NCBI RefSeq assembly: GCF_036365525.1
Contig: NC_090405.1
Coordinates: 33,982,224-34,046,223 of the forward strand
Direction of reading: 5' to 3'
From: Heterodontus francisci
Taxonomy: Eukaryota
DNA: 64,000 bases
Each line of letters starts with the position of its first letter. Within the stretch, counting starts at the first letter, position 1. The notes under the pieces were generated by a model. It worked only from the letters and a program-made list of their open reading frames with translations. It made no database searches and was not told the origin of the DNA. This document shows, piece by piece, positions 9,400 through 64,000 of the stretch. The translations under genes and the position numbers were made by a program.

Positions 9400-10540
9400 T
9401 GGGATCATCTTCTCATTGCTGCTCTCGTATATGTTCAAGTCTTCAGAAGAAGGAATTTTCCTCGACACAAGATCAGATGGCAGGTTGTTCCACCTTGCCC
9501 ATCTTAGAGCGAAGACCTAGGTACGGAAAGTCCTCATCAGGGAACTCCTCTTTGCTGACGATGCTGCTCTAACATCTCACACTGAAGAGTGTCTGCAGAG
9601 ACTCGGCGACAGGATTGCAGCTGCCTGCAACGAATTTGGCCTAATCATCAGCCTCAAGAAAACGAACATCATGGGACAGGACGTCAGAAATGCTCCATCC
9701 ATCAATATCGGCGACCAGGCTCTGGAAATGGTTCAAGAGTTCATCTACCTAGGCTCAACTATCACCAGTAACCTGTCTCTCGATGCAGAAATCAACAAGC
9801 GCATGGGAAAGGCATCTGCTGCTATGTCCAGACTGGCCAAGAGGGTGTAGGAAAATGGCGCACTGACACAGAACACAAAAATCCGAGTGTTTCAAGCCTG
9901 TGTCCTCAGTACCTTGCTCTACGGCAGCGAGGCCTGGGCAACGTATGACAGCCAAGAGCGACGTCTCAACTCATTCCATCTTCGCTGCCTCCGGAGAATT
10001 CTTGGCATCAGGCGGCAGGACCGTATCTCCAACGCAGAAGTCTTCGAGGCGGCCAACACCCCCAGCATATACACCCTACTGAGCCAGCGGCGCTTGAGAT
10101 GTCTTGGTCATGTGAGCCGCATGGAAGATGGCAGGATCCCCAAGGACGCATTGTACAGCGAGCTCGTCACTGGTATCAGACCCACTGGCCGTCTGTGTCT
10201 CCGCTTTAAAGATGTCTGCAAATGCGACATGAAGTCCTGTGACATTGACCACAAGTTGTGGGAGTCAGTTGCCAGTGATTGCCAGAGCTGGCGGGCAGCC
10301 ATAAAGGCGGGGCTAAAGAGTGGCGAGTCGAAGAGAGTTGGGAGTTGGCAGGAAAAGAGAAGTGCAAGGAGAGAGCCAACTGTGTAACAGCCCTGACAAC
10401 CAATTTTATCTGCAGCGCTTGTGGAAGAGTTTGTCACTCTAGAATTGGCCTTTATAGCCACTCCAGGCGCTGCTCCACAAACCACTGACCACCTCTAGGC
10501 GCTTACCCATTGTCTCTCGAGACAAGGAGGCCAAAGAAGA
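9400..10540 (+). mobile_element. RTE-clade LINE, 5'-truncated (RT to 3' end)
   Basis: LLFADDAAL, GLIISLKKT, YLGS, QACVLSTLLYGSEAW and C-terminal CSACGRVCHSRIGLYSHSRRC; a few stops and a frameshift. Confidence 0.9.
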
Positions 10541-24294: not shown

Positions 24295-25330
24295 TAGAAA
24301 CATGGAAAGCAGGAGTAGGCCTTTAGGGCCTGCTCTTCCACTCAAAAAAGATCATGGCTGATTGTCTAATTTAGTACCCCGTTCCTGCTTTCTCCCCATA
24401 TCCCTTTGGTGTTAAAAAATATATCTGTCTCCTTCTTAAATATATTTAATGACTTGTCCTCCACTGCCTTCTGTGGTAGTGAATTCCACAGGTTCACCAC
24501 CCTCTGAGTGAAGAAATTTCTCCTCATCTCTGTTCTAAATGACATACCCTGTATCCTGAGATTGTGACCCCTGGTTCTGGAGTCCCCAGCCATCGGGAAC
24601 ATCCTCCTTGCATCTAGCCTGTCTAGTCCTGTTAGAATTTTGTAGGTTTCTATGAGATCCCGTCTCATCTGAACTCTAGTGACTATAGGCCTAGTCGACC
24701 CAATCTCTCCCCATATGCCAATCCCGCCATCCCAGGAATCAGCCTAGTAAATCATCTTTGTACTCCTGCAAGAACATCCTTCCTCAGATGAGGAGACCAA
24801 AACTGCACACAATACTCCAGATGTGGTCTCACCAAGGCCCTGTATAACTGCAGTAAGACATCCTTGCTCCTGTACTCGAGCTTTCAGCGACTGGTGTACA
24901 AAGACACCCAGGTCTCGTTGCACCTCCCCCTTTCCCAATCTATCACCATTCAGATAATCTGCCTTTCTGTTTTTACAACCAAAGTGGATAACCTCGCATT
25001 TATCCACGTTATACTGCATCTGCCATGCATATGCCCGCTCACGCAACTTGTCCAAATTGTATTGGAGCCGCTTTGCATCCTCCTCACAGCTCACATTCCC
25101 TCCCCACCCCGACTTTGTGTCATCTGCAACATTGGTTTCCTCACCCGTCATTAATATATATTGTGAATAGCTGGGGCCCAAGCACTGATCCCTGCAGTGT
25201 CCACTAGTCACACCTGAAAAAAGACCTGTTTATTCCTACTCTCTGTTTCCTGTCTGTCAACCAATTCTCAATTCATGCCTGTATATTACTCCCAATCCCA
25301 TGTACTTTAATTTTGCCCTCTTATGTGGGA
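24295..25330 (-). mobile_element. CR1 (HER1-like) LINE 3' portion
   Basis: ADDTK, WQMQYNVDKCEVIHFG, RRNFFTQRVVNLWNSLP. Confidence 0.9.
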
Positions 25331-30750: not shown

Positions 30751-31068
30751 TTTTTTTTTTAGAGATACAGCACTGAAATAGGCCCTTTGGCCCACCGAGT
30801 CTGTGCCGGCCATCAACCACCCATTTATACTAATCCCACATTAATTCCATATCCCTACCACCTACCTATACTAGGGGCAATTTATAATGGCCAATTTACC
30901 TATCAACCTGCAAGTCTTTGGCATGTGGGAGGAAACCGGAGCACCCGGAGGAAACCCAAGCAGACACAGGGAGAACTTGCAAACTCCACACAGGCGGTAT
31001 CCAGAATTGAACCCGGGTCGCTGGAGCTGTGAGGCTGCGGTGCTAACCACTGCGCCACTGTGCCGCCC
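30751..31068 (-). mobile_element. HE1-type V-SINE
   Basis: tRNA head ggcacagtggcgcagtggttagc, V-domain ccgggtgctccggtttcctcccac, CR1-like tail. Confidence 0.9.
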
Positions 31069-31074
31069 ACTGTG

Positions 31075-37959: not shown

Positions 37960-38745
37960 TCAAAAGAAAGACTTGCAATTATGTCGTGCCTTTTACAGCC
38001 ACGGGACATCCCAAATAGCTTTACAGCCAAATAAAGGCTTTTAAAGTAGTAATGGTAACATAGGAAATGCAGCCAATATTGTGCGCAGCAAAGTCCCACA
38101 AACAGCAATGAGATAATGGCCAGATAGACTATTTTAGTAATGTTAGTTGAGGGATAAATATTGGCCACACTGGGGAGCAGTTGTTTTAATTGTTTTGTTT
38201 TAGAGATACAGCACTGAAACAGGCCCTTCGGCCCACCGAGTCTGTGCCGACCATCAACCACCCATTTATACTAATCCCATAATCCTACCGCATCCCCACC
38301 TGTCCCTATATTTCCCTACCACCCACCTTTACTAGGGGCAATTTATAATGGCCAATTTACATACCATCCTGCAAGTCTTTTGGCTGTGGGAGGAAACCGG
38401 AGCACCCGGAGAAAACCCACGCAGACACAGGGAGAACTTGCAAACTCCACACAGGCAGTACCCAGAATTGAACCCGGGTCGCTGGAGCTGTGAGGCTGCG
38501 GTGCTAACCAATGCGCCACTGTGCCGCCCTGCTGCTTTTGAAATAGTGTGATAGGATCTTTTTACATTCACCTGAGGACAGAATGCCTGGTTTTTAATGT
38601 CACATCTGAATGATGGCATCCTTGACAGTGCAGGATTGCCCTGAAGCCTCAGCCTAGATTTTTGTGCTTAAGTCTTTGGAGAGGGACTGAACCCACATCT
38701 TCTGACTCGAAGACAAAAGTGCTACCCGCTGAGATACAGCTGCTT
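37960..38745 (-). mobile_element. Deu-domain SINE interrupted by an HE1 SINE
   Basis: SINE halves at about 37960-38185 and 38530-38745 flank the HE1 copy. Confidence 0.7.
38197..38529 (-). mobile_element. HE1-type V-SINE
   Basis: Near-identical to 30751-31068. Confidence 0.9.
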
Positions 38746-49144: not shown

Positions 49145-50330
49145 CCTTCCATACTAGCGCTTTCGATATGTCGTCCTCTTTCCTCAACTGAGGATTCTCC
49201 CCCACTGTGGTTGACAGCCCTCGATAGTGTACATTCTATTTCACCCATTTCTGCTGTCACCCACCTGTCTTCTTAGAACTATAATAGGGTTCCCCTTGAC
49301 CTCACCTTCCACCCCACCAGCCTTTGTATTCAACAGGTCATCCTCCACCACTTCTAACGTGATGCCGCGACCTATTGCATCTTCCCCTCGCCTCCCCTTG
49401 CAGCATTCCGAAGGAAGTGGTCCGCTCCTCAGTCATCCCCCCCCCTCCCCCACCAAACCCCCTCCCCTTACTACAGCACCTTTCCATGCAAGCGCAGGAG
49501 ATGCAACACCTGCCCTCTCACCTCCTCCCTTCTCACCATCCCAAGGCCCCAACACTCCTTCCAGGCAAAACAGTGATTTACTTGAACTTCTTTCAGCTTA
49601 GTGTACTGCATTCACTGCCCATGTTGTGATCTACTCTACATTGGGAAGACCAACTGCAGACTGGGTGATTGCTTTGCAGCACACCTCCATTCAGTCTGGA
49701 AGCGTGACCTCGAGCTTCCAGTCTCCTGTCATTTTAATTCTCCAGCTTGCTCCACTCTGACCTTTCTGCTCCCGACTTCCTGCAATGTTCCAATGAAGCT
49801 CAATGCAAGCTTGATGAACACCACATCATCTTTCAACTGGTCGCTTTACAGCCTTCTAGACTCAACACTGAGTTCAACAATTTTAGGTCATAACTCCCGC
49901 CCCCATTTTGTTTCCTACTTCTTTGCTGGCTTTGTTTTTTTTCTCTTTAGTTTTGCTTTCATTTCCTTTATTTTAGCTTTTGGATGGCAGCTATTTACGA
50001 TCCTGCCATTCACACCTACTCTAGACACATATTTTGTTTCTTTACTTTCCCCACCAGCACACCCTTTTGTCTTGCATCATCAGCCTTTTTATCACGTAGA
50101 TCATTCCTGTCCTCCACCCTATCACAGAACTTTTCTTTTGTTCTTTTTCCCATCCTCCCCCCTTTTACTTGCTCAAAACCTACTGCATTCCTAACTTTTC
50201 CCAGTTCGATGAAAGGTCACAGACCTGAAATGTTAACTCAGTTTCTCTCTCCACTAATGCTGCTAGACCTGCTCAATATTTCCAGTATTTTCTGTTTTAA
50301 TTTTAGATTTCCTGCAGTACTTTGCTTTTG
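49145..50330 (+). mobile_element. Penelope-like element (GIY-YIG endonuclease remnant plus terminal repeat)
   Basis: YCIHCPCCDLLYIGKTNCRLGDCFAAH; hammerhead-like motif near 50203-50240. Confidence 0.85.
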
Positions 50331-51060: not shown

Positions 51061-51856
51061 AACAGTGACTATACTTCAAAAAGTACTTCATAGAGCCATA
51101 GACTCATTTATGGCACAGAAGGCCATTCGGCCCATCAAGTCCATGCCAGCTCTCTGTGGAGCTATCCAGTCAGTCCCATTCCCCCTACTCGATCCCCTTT
51201 TATTTCCTTCAAGCGCCCATCCTATTCCCTTTTGAAATCATTGATTGTTTCTGCTTCTACCATCCTCGTTGGTGTAAAGCACCTTGGGACATGCTGAGGT
51301 TGTGAAAGGTGCTGTATAAATGCAAGTTTTTTTTCTTTTAAACTTCAAGCTGGGTAACTAACTAATTAAAATCAAAAAGCTGTATTAACAAGCAAAAATA
51401 ATTCACTGTATGAAGTGCTTGGAGACCGAGACATAGAAGATGAAAAATAATTGCAACTGTTATCAACTAAGTGCATACAAAAAAAGACTCAGGGTGCATC
51501 TTTTGCCACCTCAGAACTTCCTAAAGTGCTTTGCAGCCAATGAAATAGTTTTATAAATGTAGTCACTGTTGTCAATATAGGAAACACAGCAACCAATTTG
51601 CGCACAGCAACCTCCCACACACAGCATTGTGAATCTGTTTACAGTAGTTACCTTGGCTTTGATTGGAGGCAATGTATCAAGTTCCATTGTTTGTCTTGGA
51701 CTCAGTTTCAACTTGGCCGGAATTACTGTCGTGACTATTTGCGCGTCGAGTTGAAAACCTCCCCGTCTTACCTTGAAGGAAGTAAAGTTCCCTTATTCAC
51801 AGTGCGACGGCTTCGTGTGCTTTGGAGTATGGGACCGGATTAAATTTGCCACCAAA

Positions 51857-52003
51857 ATGCAGTCGAATGCAATACAGTGGACGGCAAGAGACTACAGTCT
51901 GAAGGAGTTTGCGAGAAAATTTCGAACATCGTTGCCTAAAATTGTTAAAATCACCGAGGGCTTCCTGGGTCGGCAAGAAGTGGATACGATCAGTGCCAGC
52001 ACC
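51857..52003 (+). CDS. First coding exon of a CABIT-domain-like (THEMIS/GAREM family-like) protein
   Basis: gccaccaaaATG, 49 codons MQSNAIQWTARDYSLKEFARKFRTSLPKIVKITEGFLGRQEVDTISAST, donor gtaagc, local CpG enrichment; the W...SL.EF.....LP.IV.I..G pattern resembles CABIT N-termini. Confidence 0.7.
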
Positions 52004-52538
52004 GTAAGCAGCTCACTGCCCGCGGCTTTTGTGTCCACCATTCGGGGTCGGGTTTTTATTTTATACCCGAGTCAGATTTTACCTGTGAGATTCTAGGAGA
52101 TTCCTTAATATGGGGAGGAATTTCTCAGCAGGGAAAATGCCATCTAAAGTTTGTAATGTATATTTTTATTGGATCATATGCAGGATTTCTCTTGATTACA
52201 GGTTATTTCTTGAACTTTTAAATTTCAGATTTAATTTTATTTCCAATAGTAAACAATGTAAAGTCGAACAATATTTCTGTGTACTTTCAATTCGGGCTGA
52301 ATTTAATATTTACAAAAGGATTCTTGACTCTATTGGCGAGCCCTCCGAGGTGGAAAGGAGTTGCTATCGAGATCATACCTGCCGCAACCTGTCAAACCTC
52401 TTCTTGCACCTTTCAGCTTGAAAATGTTTTGCTGGAACTGCGAGCTGAAAACGGCGCAGTGAGGGCAAAGGGGCTTTGGGCAAATTCGGAACAAACAGTT
52501 TGAGAGAGGAGAGGGTCAAAGACTAGTATTTTAAATAA

Positions 52539-52888
52539 GGGTGGCACAGTGGCGCAGCGGTTAGCACCGCAGCCTCACAGCTCCAGGGACCTGGGTTCGA
52601 TTCCGGGTACTGTCTGTGTGGAGTTTGCAAGTTCTCCCTGTGTCTGCGTGGGTTTTCTCCGGGTGCCTCCGGTTTCCTCCCACAAGCCAAAAGACTTGCA
52701 GGTTGATAGGTAAATTGGCCATTATAAATTGTCACTAGTATAGGTAGGTGGTAGGGAAATATAGGGACAGGTGGGGATGTTTGGTAGGAATATGGGATTA
52801 GTGTAGGATTAGTATAAATGGGTGGTTGATGTTCGGCACAGACTCGGTGGGCCGAAGGGCCTGTTTCAGTGCTGTATCTCTAAAAAAA
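52539..52888 (+). mobile_element. HE1-type V-SINE with TSD
   Basis: Full head, V-domain and tail; taaataaggg duplicated at 52532-52541 and 52889-52898. Confidence 0.92.
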
Positions 52889-55025
52889 TAAATAAGGGCA
52901 ATTATGAGGGCATGAAAGCAGAGCTAGCTAAAGTGAACTGGCAAATTTGGTTAAGGGATAGGTCAATAGAGATGAAGCGGCAGATGTTTAAGTGGATATT
53001 TCAGAATACACAATAGATACATTCCAATGAGAAAGCAAAATTCCAAGTGGAGGACCCACCATCCGAAGTTAGTTAAAGATAGTATCAAAATTAAAGAAAA
53101 CACATATAATTGCACAAAGATGGGTGGCAGGTCAGAAGTTTGGACAGAATATAAAAAACAGCAGAGAATGACTAAAAGATTAATAAGGAAGGAAAGATTA
53201 AAGTACAAGAGAAAGCTAGCTAGAAATATAAAATCAGATAGTAAGAGTTTCTACATGTATTTAAAAAAGAGTTAACAAAGTGCAGATCGGTCCTATAGAA
53301 AGTGAGTCTGGGAATTAATAATGGAATATAAGGAGATGGCATATGAATTGAACAGGTATTTTGCATCAGTCTTCACTATAGAGGATAGAATTAACATTCC
53401 AGAAATAGCTATAGATCAAGAAATGGAAGGGAGGAACTCAAGAAAATTACAATCACCTGGGAAGTAGTACTGAGAAGTTATTGGAGTTGCAGGCTGACAA
53501 GTTCTGGGTCTTAATAGAAGTGACTAGTGAGATAGCTGATGCGTTGATTTTAATTTTCCAAAAATTCCCTAGATTCTGGGAAGATTCCGTTAGATTGTAA
53601 AATAGCCGATGTAACTCCTTTATTCAAAAAGGGAGACAGAAAGCAGGAAACTACAGGCCAGTTAGCATAACATCTGTCATAGGGAAAATGTTAGAAGCTA
53701 TTATTAAAGACATTGTAGCAGGGCACTTAGAAAAATTCAGTGTAATCAGGCAGAGTCAACATGGTTTTGTGAAAGGGAAATCATGTTTAAATGTCTTAAC
53801 AATTTATTGGATTTCTTTGAAGAAGTATCATGTGCTGTGGATAAAGGGGAACTGGCGGACGTACTGTACTTAGATTTCCAGAAGGCATTTGATAAGGTGC
53901 CACGTCAAAGGTTATTGTGGAAAATAAAAGCTCACGGTGTAGGGTAACATATTGGCATGGACCGAAGATTGCCTAACTAATAGGAAACAGACAGTAGGCA
54001 TAAATGGGTCGTTTTCTGGTTGGCAAGATGTAACAAGTGTTGTGCCACAGGGTTCAGTGCTGGGGCACTGAAATTTTACAATTTATACAAATGACTTGGA
54101 TGAAGGGACCAAAGGTATTTTTACTAAATTTGCTGATGACACAAAGATAGGTAGGGAAGTAAGTTGTGAAGGGGACATAAGAAGGTGACAAAGGGATATA
54201 GACAGGTTCAGTGAATTAAACATCTGGCAAATGGAGTATAATGTGGGAAAATGTGAAATTGTCCATTTTGGCAGGAAGAATAGAAAAGAAGCATATTATC
54301 TAAATGGTGAGAGATTGCAGAGCTCTGAGATGCAGATTGATTTGGGTGTCTTAGCGCATGAATTACAAAAGGTTGGTATGCAAGTACAGCAAGTAATTAG
54401 GAAAGCTAATAGAATGTTATCATTTATTGCGAGGGGAATTGAATACAAAAGTGGGGAGATTATGCTTCAGCTGTCCAGAGCATTGGTGAGACCACTTCTG
54501 GAGTACTATGTACAGTATTAGTTTCCTTCTTTAAGGAAGGATGCAAATGCGTTGGAAGCAGTTCAGAGAAGGTTTACTAGAGTAATACCTGGAATGGGCA
54601 GGTTGTCCTAGGAGGAAAGATTGGACAGGCAAGTCTTGTATCCACTGGAGTTTAGAAGAGTAAGAGGTGACTTGATTGAAACATACAAGATCCTGAGGGG
54701 TCTTGACAGGGTGGATGTGGAAAGGATGTTTCCTTTTGTAGGAGAATCTAGAACTAGGGGTCACATTTAAAAATAAGGGGTCGCCCATTTAAGACAGAGA
54801 TGAGGCGAAATTATTTCTCTCAGAGGGTCGTGAGTCTTTGGAACTCTCTTCCTCAAAAGGCAGCGGAAGCAGACTCTTTGAATATTTTTAAGGCTGAAGA
54901 AGATAGATTCTTGTTATGCAAGGGGGTGAAAGTTTATCGGTGGTAGGCAGGAATGTGAAGTTGAGGTTACAATCAGATCAGCCATGATCTTGAATGACGG
55001 AGAAGGCTCGAGGGATCGAATGGCC

Positions 55026-55640: not shown

Positions 55641-56205
55641 GGCCTACTTCTCCTAATTCAGATGTTCCCTCTCCCCATAGCTCTGCACACCAGACATGCA
55701 CCAGCCTTCCTTGCATCCAGTATTACTCTGGGTCAAATACTGTATGGCTATCATTTACATGGCTTTTAAATATCCTTGTCCATATTAGGATGCATGTCAC
55801 CCATTACTCCTGGAGGAAATTTCCATGAGTGGCAGGGTCTGTACAGAGTCGGTACAAATGGCTCCCACCTGCTTTTCTGTCCCTGCCTACTGCATTACAT
55901 AGGGAAGTCAGCATAATACCAGGACAGGATCTAGCTCATAGACAGTGAAAATGTTTTAAAATCCACCTTTTCCATTTGCCTACTTTGCATTACTTCCTCC
56001 TCAGACCAAGTGCCATGTCACAGCTGAGAAAGCAACCTGCTTCCGCTTTCTGCAAATGGGTGTACTTAACAGGCTCCAACAGGGAAATAGAAACTCCTCC
56101 CTATTTTTCTCCTTCCTAAAATGGTGCAACTGAGGTCAGTACCAGGTACCTCGACAAATTGTTATTGCAAATTAGATACTACCGATCATATTCGTGACCT
56201 AAAGG

Positions 56206-58644
56206 AGGAGTGGGGTATGGGCCAGACTTGCACCACATACAGCAACAACGTGAGCGCCTCGCACCTGATGGCCAGGTTCTTACCCACAATGGAGAAAGAT
56301 CGCTGCTCCCACATGCTCAGTTTATGGTGTACCCTGGCTACTCGCTCCTTCCAGGTTTTGGTGCACAACCCGGCCCTTCCGAACCATATCGCCAGCATCT
56401 TCAGGTAGTCTGACCTGACGGTGAAGGGGACAAAGGAACAGTCAGCCCCGTTCCCAAAGAACATCGCCTCGCTCTTGCCGTGGTTAACGTTGGCTCCCAA
56501 GGCCAGTTCAAACTGGTCACAGATGCTGATCAATCTGCAAACCGACAACAGATCCGAGCAGAAGATAGCGACGTCATCCATGTACAGGGAGGTTTTAACC
56601 TGAGTGCCTCCGCTGCCTGGGATTGTCACCCCTCTTATGCCCGCATCCTTCCTATAAACTCAGCAAAGGGTTCAATACAGCAAACAAACAAGACAGGGGA
56701 GAGAGGGCAGCCCTGTCTGACTCCAGATTGGATCGGGAAACTTTCTGATTCCCAACCATTGATTGAGACTGCACTACTGATGTTTGTGTAGAGCAGTTTG
56801 ATCCAATTGCAGATTCCCTCCCCAAACCCCATTTTGGAGAGCATGTCCATCATGTAGGTGTGCGATATCCTGCCAAAAGCCTTCTCCTGGTCCAAGCTGA
56901 TGAGGCAGGTGTCCACCCTCTCATCCCGTACATAGGCGATCGTATCTCTGAGTAGCGCAAGACTATCAGAGATCTTCCTGCCGGGCACAGTGCAGGTCTG
57001 ATCAGGGTGAATCACCAACACCAGAGCAGACTTGACTTGACTGGCGATGACTTTGGACAGAATCTTGTAGTCAACATTAAGCAGTGAGATGGGCCGCCAA
57101 TTTCTGATTTCTGCCCTCTCCCCCTTCCGCTTGTAGATGAGGTGATGATGCCTTTCCTCATGGATTCTGACATGCTGCCGGCCAGGAGCATACTCTCGTA
57201 TACTTCCAGCAGGTCTCGGCCGACCCAGTCCCACAGGGCCGAATACAACTCAACCGGTAAGACATCGCTTCCGGGAGTTTTACTTGTCTCGAAGGACCTG
57301 ACGGCGTTTGTCAGCTCATCCAGAGTTAGCGGCTTGTCCAGTCTCTCCCTCATGGTGTCATCTAAGACCTCTGTGATAGATGACAGGAAGGATTGGGAGG
57401 CTCTGCTGTCTGTGGGCTTCACGTCGTACAGCCCAGCATAGAATGATTTGTTGATCCTTAGTATGTCGGACTGCGAAGACGTTACCGAGCCATCCTCTTC
57501 CTTCAGGCTGCTGATCAGAGCTCTCTCTGTGTACCTTTTGGAAGAAGTAACATGAGCACGTCACATCCTGCTCAACGGAGCGGACTCTGGACCGGAAGAT
57601 GATCTTGGAGGTCTCCGTGGCAAAGAGCGAGGTCTGCTGGCTCTTCACCTCCTTGACCTCGACCCCCATCGACTGCAGCCGGAGCAGATTTTGCATAATT
57701 TTCTGGAGTTGGGATATTTCCCTCTGTCTCTCTCTCGCCCTCTGAATACCTTTGAAGATAAAGAACCTCTTGATGTTCTCCTTGATTGTCTCCCACCAGT
57801 GAACTGGAGACTCAAAGAGGGGTTTCACGGTTCTCCAACCTGTGTAATCCCTTTTGAGTTCCTCAACGTTCTCTGGGGTTAGCATTGTAGCATTGAGCTT
57901 CCATGTCCCCCTGTCAACCCGCTGGTCATCCGGTAAGTGACAGTCGGCCAGTAAGAGGCAGTGGTTGGAGAAGGACACCGGCTTGACGTCGGTGGATCTG
58001 ACCGTGACAGCACGGGACACAAACAGGAAGTCAATCCGGGAACGGGCAGACCCGTCCGATCTTGACCATGTGTATCTGCGCTGCGCTCCGTCTGCAGGTT
58101 TGCTGAAGACATCGTGCAGTTTGGCATCTTTTGCTGTTTCCATTAGGAATCTGGACGTAGCATCCAGTTTGCTGTCGTCTCTGCCGGATCGTCCAGCTGC
58201 ATCAATGATGCAGTTGAAGTCACTGCCTAGAATGACCGGCCTGGACGTCGCCAGCAGCAGTGGGAGCTGCTGGAAGACGGTCAGCCGCTCGCTGCATTGA
58301 ACCGGGGCATACATGTTGATCAACCGGAGTGGAGCATTGTTGTACATTACATCTGCTACGAGGAGGCGACCGCCCACCACCTCCTTAACTTGGGAGATGG
58401 TGAAGTTACCTCCCCGCAGCAGAATACCCAGGCCGGAGGAACGGGAATCATTACCCCTTGACCAGATCGATGGCCCGTGGGACCACCATCACAACCATTG
58501 CTTGTAGGTGCTGAGATGTGGTATTCCACACTCCTGCAGCAACAGTAGGTCGGCTTTGATCTTGGCGAGGTAATCCAAGGTTGAAACACATCGTGTAGTG
58601 GATTTAACGCTACTCATGTTAATTGAAGCAATCTTTATACCCAT
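56206..58644 (-). mobile_element. Tx1-clade retrotransposon copy C, ORF2 (APE + RT), frameshifted, 3' end missing
   Basis: MGIKIASIN, LLLQECG, ILGSDFNCI, SRIDFLFVS, NWRPISLLNVDYKILSK, GVRQGCPLSP, LYMDDV; homology to copy A stops at 56206. Confidence 0.93.
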
Positions 58645-58649
58645 TTTTA

Positions 58650-60345
58650 AGTTAGTTGTTGCTTCGCACACCATTTGTCCTTGCTAGTCCCAGTCCTTCG
58701 GTATCTTTCCCCTTGAAAACATCACTGCTCCCAGCTTCCCGGAGCTGGAGTGCGCCCGACGCTTCTCCGGTGTCCCGGAGCTGGGATGTGCTGGGCATGT
58801 CGCTAGGTCCAACGCTTTGGGTTTGGGGTGCGGGGCCCATCACAGCTTCCAATGCCCCAGAGCTGGGGGGGCTTTATCTTCCAGCTCCTTTGAGTTCTGC
58901 CGCTTCTTTTGGGGGTGCCGTTGTTCCGGCCCTTCCTCGTCCAGTGAGGAGGAGCTGCTGTAGTCTGTCTCAGACGGTAGCCTCCTCTTTCCAATGGTTT
59001 GGGTGGTGGCCTGTCCTTTTTTGGAGGTTTTTTCTTTGTGGTTTTCCTTTGTACCACCTGCCACTGACCAGTTTATCCATCTGCTGCCTCCTCCTCCATT
59101 GATTCTGTCTGTAAAGGAGGGATTTCCGGGTGCAGGGTAGGTGTTGGGTCACTGGTTTCAGCTGCCTCCCCTTTCTTCTCCTTCTTAGGTAGACTTTCCT
59201 AGCTGCGGGGAGGGTTGCTTGTCTCCTTCCCAGTACCAGACGTGTTCACCGTTCCTTCTCCCAGCCTTTCCTTAGACCTTGCCGCCTCAGCATAACTGAG
59301 GCAGGTTTTGTAGAGGTGGCCTGCCTCACCGCACAAGTTGCAGCACTTACTCTGCTTACAGTCCCTGGTCTGGCCTTCCTTCTTGCAAACAACTGTGCTG
59401 CAGTTAGCTGCCACGTGACTAGATTTGCCACAGGTGCGACAAACTCTGGGTTGCCCTGCATAGGCCAAGAAGCCTTGATTTCCCCTGATAGTGAAGCTGG
59501 AGGGAGGATGGATGATTGCTCTGTTGGCTTCGACCTTCAGGGTCACCTTGACCTGCTGCTTGCTGATCCAAATCCCAAAGGGGTCCTTGACATCAGTGCT
59601 GCTGCCGGCCACCTCGACGTACCTGGTGAGGAAAGTGAGTATATCCACGACAGGAACAGGGGGGTTATAGAGGTGAATTGTCACCACCTAGATTCATAGA
59701 GAGATACAGCACTGAAACAGGCCCTTCAGCCCACCAAGTCTGTGCCGACCAACAACCACCCATTTATACTAATCCTACATTAATCCTATATTCCCTACCA
59801 CATCCCCACCATTCTCCGACCACCTACCTACACTAGGGGCAATTTACAATGGCCAATTTACCTATCAACCTGCCAATCTTTGGCTGTGGGAGGAAACCGG
59901 AGCACCCGGCAGAAACCCATGCGGTCACAGGGAGAACTTGCAAACTCCACACAGGCAGTACCCAGAACTGAACCCGGGTCGCTGGAGCTGTGAGGCTGCA
60001 GTGCTAAACACTGCGCCACTGTGCCACCCACCCGGTCACATTGCGATGGCAGTGTGAAGAGTGGCTCCACTGTGAGGATCGACAGTGGCACCTGGTTTGC
60101 CTTCTCCTTGAACACCTTCAGGAACTTGATGCATCCCGCCACATTCTTGAAAGTCACGTCGAAATATCCACTGCTGGGGAAGTCCTGCAGGCAGAAGATG
60201 TCCGCAGCTTGGAATCCACAACAATGAGGATTTTATTGATGAAGAAGGTACAGTCAACCGGTGCATCTCCATCCTTATCCTTCACCACCACCTGAACGGT
60301 GTTACGCACTCCCTGGCTTGAAGCTCTAGAATTGGTTACAGTCAT
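58650..60345 (-). mobile_element. Tx1 copy C, ORF1 (ZCCHC3-like, CCHC knuckles), disrupted
   Basis: ATG at 60345; IFCLQDFPSSGYFDVTF, YAGQPRVCRTCGKSSHVAANC, CNLCGEAGHLYKTC. Confidence 0.9.
59689..60027 (-). mobile_element. HE1-type V-SINE nested in Tx1 ORF1
   Basis: Splits ...PSQCDR|VVTIHLYN...; short ccacc duplication at both ends. Confidence 0.9.
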
Positions 60346-60383
60346 TTTACTCAAAACCTACCTGGAACAGGAGCAAAGGCCAC

Positions 60384-60415
60384 TGATCATGGTCTCTCCC
60401 CTGCCAGGTAAGTAT
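60384..60415 (-). ncRNA. RNU1: U1 snRNA 5' fragment (nt 1-32), not a complete gene
   Basis: ATACTTACCTGGCAGGGGAGAGACCATGATCA, 31/32 identical to the canonical vertebrate U1 5' end, starting exactly at U1 +1. Confidence 0.92.
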
Positions 60416-60432
60416 CAAGTAGCAAATGGACA

Positions 60433-60829
60433 TGTTGGGGTTGTTTTTCAGTCCATTGTGCAGTTTTACTTGGAGCTGGTGTACTTGGTCACTGCCTTTG
60501 CCCCTTCCGACACGGCGTGCTTGGCCAGCTCCCCGGGCAGCAGCAGGCGCACGGCGGTCTGGATCTCCCGGGAGCTGATGGTGCTGCGCTTGTTGTAATG
60601 GGCCAGGCGGGAAGCCTCACCCATGATGCGCTCGAAAATATCGTTCACAAATGAGTTCATGATGCTCATGGCCTTGGAGGAGATGCCGGTGTCGGGGTGA
60701 ACCTGCTTCATCACTTTGTAGATGTAGATGGAGAAACTCTCCTTCCTCGTCTTTCTCCGCTTCTTGCCGCCCTTTGCTGAAGGTTTACTCACAACTTTCT
60801 TGGCACCCTTCTTAGCAGCTGCTTTCTAC
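60433..60829 (-). pseudogene. H2B: Histone H2B pseudogene (no ATG, no 3' stem-loop)
   Basis: [53 protein letters not shown]...AVTKYTSSK*; preceded by an in-frame TAG and the Tx1 poly(A); substitutions at normally invariant sites (ESF, ERIMG, EGAK). Confidence 0.93.
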
Positions 60830-61983
60830 TTTTTTTTTTATTTCCAAAATATGCTTTATTCATAAAAATCTGTAAAAATTACATTCCCAAACAGTTTAAA
60901 CCAGCATCAAGTCAAAAAATACAAACAGTGCAAAGGTGAACAGTTTCCTTCTATACAATCATGAGTTGCCTCACAACCCTTCCATTTCATTGTCATGCCA
61001 TATACATTTTTACATTTACAGCACACAAAATTTTCCCGATACAGTTCGAGGGGTTTCCCCTGGATCCAGCTCCTCAGTTCAGCTTGGTGGGGGGACCTTA
61101 CACTGTGGTCTTTCCCCATTGAGCCTTTGCTGCGGCTGCCCCAAACTTTAGTGCGTCCCTCAGCACGTAGTCCTGGACCTTGGAATGTGCCAGTCTGCAA
61201 CATTCGGTGGTGGACAACTCTTTGCGCTGGAAGACCAGCAAGTTTCGGGCAGACCAAAGGGCATCTTTCACCGAATTTATAGTCCTCCAGCAGCAGTTGA
61301 TGTTTGTCTCGGTGTGCGTTCCTGGGAACAGCCCGTAGAGCACAGACTCCTGTGTTACAGAGCTGCTTGGGATGAACCTCGACAAAAACCACTGCATCTC
61401 TTTCCACACCTGCTTTGCAAAGACACATTCCAGGAGGAGGTGGGCGACCGTCTCTTCCCCACCACAGCCAACGCGGGGGCACTGTGCGGAGGGGGCAAGA
61501 CTTCGGGTGTGCATGAAGGATCTGACGAGAAGGGCCCTTCTCACCACCAGCCAAGCTACGTCTTGGTGTTTGTTTGAAAGTTCTGGTGATGAGGCATTCC
61601 GCCAAATGACTTTGACGGTCTGCTCGGGGAACCATCCGACAGCATCCACTGTCTCCTTTTCCCGTAGGGCCTTGAGGACATTCCGTGCAGACCACTGCCT
61701 GATGGACCGGTGGTCAAAGGTGTTTTCCCGCAGAAACTGCTCCACGAAGGATAGGTGGTACGGCACGGCCCAACTGCTTGGAGCATTCCGCGGCAATGTG
61801 GCCAAGCCCATCCTTCGCAACACCGGGGACAGATGGAACCTCAGCACGTAGTGACACTTGGAGTTTGCGTACTGGAGGTCTACACACAGCTTGATGCAGC
61901 CACACACGAAGGTGGTCATCAGGATGAGGGCCACGTTGGGTCCATTTTTCCCGCTCTTATCCAGAGATTTGAACATCGTGTCC
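60830..61983 (-). mobile_element. Tx1 copy B: 3' part of ORF2, 3' UTR and poly(A)
   Basis: Open frame DTMFKSLDK...CPRVGCGGEETVAHLLLEC...WGKTTV* (stop at 61098), AATAAA at 60860-60855, A10 at 60839-60830. Confidence 0.95.
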
Positions 61984-64000
61984 TTTTTTTTTATTTCCAA
62001 AATATACTTTATTCATAAACATCTGTAAAAATTACATTGCCAAACAGTTTCCAAACAGCACCAAAAAATACAAACATTGATCGGGAGATCAGTTTCCTTC
62101 AATACTGTCATGAGTTTCTTCCCAACCCTTCCGTTTCACAATTGTCATGTCAATTACAGTTTTACATTTACAGCAATTGAGAATATTAAGGATACAGTTC
62201 AAGGGGTTTCCCATTGATCCAGCCCCTCAGTCTAGCTTGGTGGGGGAACCTTACACTGTGGTCTTTCCCCATTGAGCCTTTGCTGCGGCTGCCCCAAACT
62301 TTAGTGCGTCCCTCAGCACGTAGTCCTGGACCTTGGAATGTGCCAGTCTGCAACATTCGGTGGTGGACAACTCTTTGCGCTGGAAGACCAGCAAGTTTCG
62401 GGCAGACAAAAGGGCGTCTTTCACCGAATTGATAGTCCTCCAGCAGCAGTTGATGTTTGTCTCGGTGTGCGTCCCTGGGAACAGCCCGTAGAGCACAGAC
62501 TCCTGTGTTACAGAGCTGCTTGGGATGAACCTTGACAAAAACCACTGCATCTCTTTCCACACCTGCTTTGCAAAGGCACATTCCAGGAGGAGGTGGGCGA
62601 CCGTCTCTTCCCCACCACAGCCAACGCGGGGGCACTGTGCGGAGGGGGCGAGACTTCGGGTGTGCATGAAGGATCTGACGGGGAGGGCCCTTCTCACCAC
62701 CAGCCAAGCTACGTCTTGGTGCTTGTTTGAAAGTTCTGGTGATGAGGCATTCCGCCAAATGACTTTGACGGTCTGCTCGGGGAACCATCCGACAGGATCC
62801 ACCGTTTCCTTTTCCCGTAGGGCCTTGAGGACATTCCGTGCAGACCACTGCCTGATGGACCGGTGGTCAAAGGTGTTTTCCCGCAGAAACTGTTCCACGA
62901 AGGATAGGTGGTACGGCACCGCCCAACTACACGGAGCGTTCCGCGGCAATGTGACCAGGCCCATCCTTCGCAACACCGGGGACAGATAGAACCTCAGCAC
63001 GTAGTGACACTTGGAGTTTGCGTACTGGGGATCTACACACAGCTTGATGCAGCCGCACACGAAGGTGGTCATCAGGGTGAGGGCCCCGTTGGGTACATTT
63101 TTCCCGCCCTTGTCCAGAGATTTGAACATCGTGTCCCTCCGGACCCGGTCCATTTTAGATCCCCAGACGAAGCGGAAAATGGCTCGGGTGACTGCCACGG
63201 CGCAGGAGTGGGGTATGGGCCAGACCTGCACCACGTAGAGCAACAACGTGAGCGCCTCGCACCTGATGACCAGGTTCTTACCCACAATGGAGAGAGATCG
63301 CTGCCCCCACATGCCCAACTTTTGTCGTACCTTGGCTACTCGCTCCTCCCATATTTTGGTGCACGCCCCGGCCCTTCCGAACCATATCCCCAGCACCTTC
63401 AGGTAATCTGACCTGACGGTGAAGGGGACAAAGGATCGGTCAGCCCAGTTGCCAAAGAACATGGCCTCGCTCTTGCCGTGGTTAACTTTGGCTCCCGAGG
63501 CCAGTTCGAACTGGTCGCAGATGCTCATCAGTCTGCGCACGGACAGCGGATCCAAGCAGAAGACGGCGACGTCATCCATGTACAGGGAGGTTTTGACCTG
63601 AGTACCTCCGCTGCCTGGGATTGTCACCCCTCTTATGCTCGCATCCTTCCTAATAGACTCAGCAAAGGGTTCAATACAGCAAAAAAACAAGACCGGGGAC
63701 AGAGGACAGCCCTGTCTGACTCCAGATTTGATCGGGAAACTTTCAGATTCCCACCCGTTGATTGAGACTGCGCTACTGATGTTTGTGTAGAGCAGTTGGA
63801 TCCAATTGCAGATTCCCTCCCCAAACCCCATTTTGGAAAGCACGTCCATCATGTAGGTGTGCGATATCCTGTCAAAAGCCTTCTCCTGGTCCAGGCTGAT
63901 GAGGCAGGTGTCCACCCTCCTGTCCCGTACGTAGGCGATCGTATCCCTGAGTAGCGCGAGACTATCAGAGATCTTCCTGCCGGGTACAGTACAGGTCTGA
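61984..64000 (-). mobile_element. Tx1 copy A: uninterrupted ORF2 (RT + C-terminal zinc finger), 3' UTR and poly(A); continues beyond the window
   Basis: Frame open from 63999 to the stop at 62251 with LDQEKAFDRISH, GVRQGCPLSP, LYMDDV; AATAAA at 62013-62008; A9 at 61992-61984. Confidence 0.96.

Follow-up and report, generated by a model that had tools for sequence, protein, structure and literature searches.

Tx1-type retrotransposons headed by sequence from the U1 small nuclear RNA (snRNA) have been described in crocodilians. The available text of Kojima 2015 (PMC4494074) names three such families, Tx1-2_Crp, Tx1-2B_Crp and Tx1-4_AMi. It describes repeated additions of U1 sequence to the 5' ends of crocodilian Tx1 and SINEU elements, ascribes the gain to template switching and, in the sections available, gives no cause for the choice of U1. 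It also reports tandem insertions around one target-site duplication (TSD) as well as insertions lacking a target change or TSD. Chimeric retrocopies formed by double jumps are documented in the accessible part of PMC2104539, and that of PMC5322556 reports 51 tailless histone retrocopies in human. Here we describe a chain of co-oriented Tx1-type copies, a histone H2B copy and a U1-like sequence on the minus strand at 56206-64000 of a 64,000-nt stretch of the Heterodontus francisci genome (NC_090405.1, assembly GCF_036365525.1), which we refer to as the window.

With slightly better than even confidence, we favor a reading in which an old, U1-headed Tx1 copy (C) was later extended at its 5' side by a copy of H2B mRNA and by two younger Tx1 copies (B and A), in at least two layers and by the reverse transcriptase (RT) of one Tx1-type family. 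Each ingredient has precedent, and the chain is an unusual variant of known events, not a new mechanism. Its parts are listed below (LINE and SINE, long and short interspersed nuclear element; ORF, open reading frame; UTR, untranslated region).

61984-64000, minus strand: Tx1-type LINE copy A, incomplete at the window edge, with RVT_1 and zf-RVT domains, the last 582 codons of ORF2 open, a 3' UTR and a 9-nt poly(A)
60830-61983, minus strand: Tx1-type copy B, 5'-truncated, with 294 open codons, a zinc finger, a 3' UTR and a 10-nt poly(A)
60434 (about)-60829, minus strand: decayed histone H2B copy (Histone, PF00125)
60416-60433, minus strand: linker of about 18 nt, possibly filler DNA or a remnant of C's target site
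60384-60415, minus strand: U1 snRNA-like 32-mer beginning at U1 +1, with a sub-threshold RF00003 alignment; 5' arm of C's predicted head hairpin
60356-60383, minus strand: predicted 3' arm of C's head hairpin
56206-60383, minus strand: Tx1-type copy C, 5'-complete, with ORF1 and ORF2 domains, stops and frameshifts, its 3' end missing
59700-60029, minus strand: SINE that interrupts C's ORF1, accompanied by a direct repeat of 4-5 nt

All five parts lie on the minus strand in the same orientation, in the minus-strand order A, B, H2B, linker, U1-like 32-mer, C. An earlier note on this DNA had reported this co-orientation and had placed direct joints at 61984/61983 and 60830/60829, and we found both to be correct. 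The 9-nt A run of A (61992-61984) directly adjoins the truncated start of B at 61983, and the 10-nt A run of B (60839-60830) directly adjoins H2B at 60829. The remaining two of the chain's four joints are not at poly(A), so the description of the whole chain as joined at poly(A) tails holds for A/B and B/H2B only. The note placed the H2B UTR about 17 nt from U1 +1; the linker measures about 18 nt, and its left edge is uncertain. The absence of TSDs at the internal junctions was borne out in the window: the longest word shared between these joints and the flank after C is 7 nt, and the longest shared among the joints is 5 nt, leaving aside the common A/B tail. Twenty of the 24 sequencing runs listed share words with 55900-62200 (best share 0.53), which is no evidence for the joints themselves.

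Between them, the three LINE copies show the architecture of the Tx1 clade, with an ORF1, an ORF2 encoding an APE endonuclease, RT and C-terminal zinc finger, and a poly(A) tail. Pfam searches identified RT and zinc finger in A and the zinc finger in B. In C they found two RNA-binding domains of the ZCCHC3 type, which belong to ORF1 (ATG at 60345), and an endonuclease and RT, which belong to ORF2 (ATG at 58644). From this architecture, and in keeping with the earlier note, we take the copies to be Tx1-type elements; the 18 relative clusters we looked up contained no named Tx1 reference. The nearest named relatives of A's ORF2 are from Heterodontus (88%) and Rhincodon (67-77%), and a literature search on ZCCHC3 and Tx1 returned nothing. 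The window contains no further copy of the family. A is 93% identical to B across 1158 aligned columns and 92% identical to C across 797; B and C do not overlap. Differences between A and B are mostly synonymous (pS 0.086, pN 0.018) and their 3' UTRs agree at only 214 of 263 columns (81%), which argues that A and B came from different masters. We observed that divergence from A peaks beside the 5' truncation of B (61983) and the 3' end of C (56206). The short UTR of C (60383-60345, minus strand) also has the look of a pyrimidine tract followed by AG. Such a possible acceptor site for splicing, directly before ORF1, could let the element join upstream transcripts.

The Tx1 copies belong to two time layers. 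We polarized private amino-acid changes against 16 relatives and counted 6/294 in B and 22/265 in C (p=0.0008); A carries 5/294 and 5/265 in two stretches, with 1 and 3 positions unresolved. CpG loss separates C from B in the same direction (16/38 versus 6/45, p=0.005), and A has lost 1/40 and 1/27 in two stretches. ORF2 of C has three frame changes and one stop, and its ORF1 is broken and holds the SINE. With 16 private changes across 307 columns, this SINE has diverged more than the other three full copies in the window. We conclude that C is the oldest Tx1 part, that A is the youngest or joint youngest, and that the chain consists of an old C and a young A/B layer.

These results bear on how many events built the chain. 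The earlier note had observed that A and B are open while C carries frameshifts and a SINE, and had taken this to favor layering over time; the differences between C and B in private changes and CpG loss now put numbers to that view. The age gap contradicts its first model, in which the Tx1 RT built all five parts at once by serial template jumping. A single event of this kind, with four jumps, would account for the co-orientation of all parts and the lack of internal TSDs, and multi-jump chimeras are known. However, C has decayed about four times as much as A and B and contains an old SINE, so an already dead C would be required as a template. A single age holds for A and B only, and we consider this explanation the least probable of all. 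The available texts of PMC2104539, PMC4476161 and bioRxiv 2025.02.02.635956 describe bipartite and tripartite LINE template-switching retrocopies that resemble the chain in being same-strand fusions of cellular RNA copies and LINE pieces with direct joins. Those chimeras are defined there by a single TSD and a single age, whereas our chain has mixed ages and no visible TSD, and its cellular mRNA sits downstream of a LINE poly(A). Serial jumping may have operated within the young layer (A-B, perhaps with H2B).

Decay differs between B and C, which also speaks against the idea that they are circularly permuted halves of one element (p=0.0008). That idea arises from their ends: B is truncated at the equivalent of A position 63136, and C is lost beyond A position 63204. 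The two ends are thus 68 nt apart in family coordinates, with a chance of about 0.027, and the coincidence is unexplained. Alternatively, the chain might be an assembly artefact, but A, B and C are distinct sequences and not collapsed duplicates. We hold permutation or artefact, taken together, to be very improbable.

No Rfam family matched at gathering level anywhere in the window, but the U1-like 32-mer aligned to positions 1-32 of RF00003 at a relaxed threshold (10.3 bits versus a gathering score of 69.5). The piece is a fragment, recognized from its alignment with the start of the consensus. A functional U1 gene was rejected, as only a fragment is present and H2B UTR stands where the promoter would be. 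Together with the next 28 nt, the 32-mer is predicted to fold into a hairpin of 24 pairs (20 Watson-Crick, 4 G-U; -31.6 kcal/mol, z=-4.4) whose end lies 11 nt ahead of the ATG of ORF1 (60345). Its stability was reached by 2 of 1000 shuffles and by 7 of 967 windows of the same size along the chain, the hairpin itself counted. The inner pairs may represent stem-loop I of U1 itself, where the Rfam alignment places them. The outer 10 pairs join the normally single-stranded 5' end of U1 to a splice-donor-like word: the final 10 nt of the 3' arm look like a 5' splice site and are paired with positions 3-12 of U1.

The earlier note had treated U1 as an independently captured RNA. Because of the hairpin fold and the crocodilian precedent, the piece is better read as C's own head and not as a fifth passenger. 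It lies, below the Rfam threshold, at the 5' end of a full-length element, directly before the UTR and ORF1 of C. As described in the available text of PMC4494074, crocodilian Tx1-Mar and SINEU share with C a Tx1-type element, a U1-derived 5' end and co-oriented piles whose joints occur with or without a TSD. That text gives a CAGGT-containing junction at positions 53-58 of SINEU-2, and the same 5-mer occurs at head positions 52-56 in C. Unlike crocodilian Tx1-Mar, the element here resides in a cartilaginous fish and is associated with no demonstrated Mariner-N4 target; the text examined reports no histone passenger and contains no head hairpin. Our literature search, made without Repbase and with few subscription papers, found no published U1-headed Tx1 from sharks and no account of the head hairpin.

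The fold suggests a bolder proposal, which we regard as unlikely. In shark Tx1 RNA, an arm just before ORF1 would be complementary to the U1 5' end through its splice-donor-like decamer and stem-loop-I complement. It might dock U1 snRNA and so drive repeated capture of heads, which would explain U1-headed Tx1 elements from sharks to crocodilians. The 5' boundary would then be a reusable landing site that adds RNAs, including histone mRNA, in order of age.

The H2B copy has the features of a tailless histone retropseudogene. It lacks an ATG, the histone stem-loop and a poly(A), and its coding sequence is decayed, with an in-frame stop at 60828-60826 and three changes at positions constant across the three PDB H2B alignments shown. 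The terminal stop codon (60468-60466) is followed by about 32 nt of 3' UTR, short of the mature end. No TSD flanks the copy; the longest word common to both ends is 5 nt. The copies described in the available text of PMC5322556 are likewise 5'-truncated and without poly(A), but they are L1 products of therian mammals selected by their TSDs, whereas this H2B is wedged between Tx1 elements with no visible TSD. A histone cluster in the window was rejected as far as we tested: there is one H2B match, no second one, no histone stem-loop motif and no histone-like frame of at least 110 aa (shorter histones such as H4 were not searched).

H2B begins right at the tail of B and stops just short of the stem-loop. 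These boundaries would also fit a family that targets H2B genes, in which B-H2B (with A) would be a read-through 3' transduction from a source element in an H2B gene that ended near the stem-loop. Tx1-clade elements often target multicopy sequences, and the age of H2B is compatible with that of B. However, H2B sequence occurred in 0 of 165 related proteins (a weak test), what follows the tail of A is Tx1 and not H2B, and our literature search found no link between Tx1 and histone genes. The same search, with the coverage given above, found no Tx1-histone chimera. We consider H2B targeting improbable.

Nested insertion into DNA is a stronger competitor, although still a minority view in our estimate. 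H2B would have been there first, either as an old chimera partner of C or as a retrocopy with C in its 3' UTR; later, purine-rich sites near the start of H2B and within the body of B would have received B and A, respectively. The age order (C older than B, and B at least as old as A) agrees with this scheme, the poly(A) tails of A and B each precede, or cut into, purine-rich words, and the available text of PMC4476161 gives two successive insertions as an alternative to double jumps. Nesting requires two more co-oriented insertions within a target measuring between a few hundred and a few thousand bases, and H2B has 4 changes against 7.8 expected at the age of C (P=0.11). On the side of nesting, the linker might represent fill copied by fold-back of an H2B DNA end. 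It contains an imperfect inverted copy of the H2B 3' UTR, a post hoc find; 229 of 5000 shuffles scored as high, as did 41 of 2160 genomic 18-mers, so the match is only a hint of possible fill-in synthesis at a DNA end.

We nonetheless favor the later 5' extension of an old C. A full-length C with a U1-derived 5' head would have inserted antisense in a probable intron; its age is observed, and the event itself is inferred. Decay, the gain of the SINE and the loss of the 3' end would have followed. H2B, B and A would have been added afterwards, through target-primed reverse transcription at the 5' boundary of C. The H2B part would derive from non-polyadenylated mRNA, with priming just before the stem-loop, and each poly(A) end would have been fused directly to the truncated 5' end of the next piece downstream. 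This layer could have arisen by template jumps in one young event or by insertions that hit the same boundary repeatedly within a short time. The resulting stack would be inert DNA. In favor of this order, non-synonymous decay decreases along the chain, from 3.6% in C through 4/218 sites in H2B to 0.9% in B and 0.7% in A.

Several results weigh against this reading. No TSD was found around any layer within the window, where the 5' end of A lies beyond the edge and the 3' end of C is lost. CpG loss does not separate the ages of A and B (p=0.11), so jumping and re-insertion are indistinguishable. The age of H2B suits either layer. Its 4 base changes in 218 non-synonymous sites, counted against non-shark H2B, exceed the 1.9 expected for the age of B and fall short of the 7.8 expected for that of C; the probability of 4 changes is 0.085 if H2B is B-like and 0.062 if C-like. 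Three further differences from the PDB proteins were left out of this count, on the assumption that they are normal in sharks. Dating by CpG half-sites gave a ratio of about 3 toward the young layer, which is too weak to decide. The inverted match in the linker would fit a DNA end-joining joint more than a target remnant. The U1 head as a family trait is inferred from one copy, C having the single 5' end in the window. Finally, the stacked order was seen in gene models of 0 of 30 close shark-like relatives.

Co-oriented Tx1 neighbors do occur in more distant relatives, among teleosts and others: gene models span them in 5 of 157 related proteins (6 were flagged, one being an internal repeat), although gene models show no distance. 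In the teleost models P0160, P0158 and P0021, related elements stand in head-to-tail runs and under neighboring locus tags, and the P0160 run begins with an RT of a different family. Searches for further family copies with flanks confirmed 0 of 15 candidate stretches in metagenome contigs by protein and none by DNA pattern, and 0 of 2 in viral contigs.

Elsewhere in the window, a CpG-rich stretch on the plus strand (51700-52060) contains an ATG in a Kozak-like context at 51857, and a donor-like GT follows 52003. Judged from its sequence, this is probably a host gene's first coding exon, of 49 aa, and the chain would probably lie antisense in an intron of that candidate gene. The 49-aa candidate had no Pfam or Atlas match; we presume a CABIT-like look. 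Decayed LINE-like fragments, presumably RTE-, CR1- and Penelope-like, occur among the long frames at 9851-10384, 24369-25229, 49586-50191 and 52976-54900. The SINE in C, which we take to be HE1-like, has three other full copies in the window that are 84-90% alike:

30761-31070: full copy of C's SINE
38202-38529: full copy of C's SINE
52539-52881: full copy of C's SINE

The stack is one dead locus, and no function is indicated for it. If our reading is correct, the range of U1-headed Tx1 elements would extend from crocodilians to cartilaginous fishes, and histone mRNA would join the RNAs handled by the Tx1 machinery. Should the head hairpin prove to be a family trait, it would provide a testable explanation for the repeated gain of U1 heads by Tx1 and SINEU elements.

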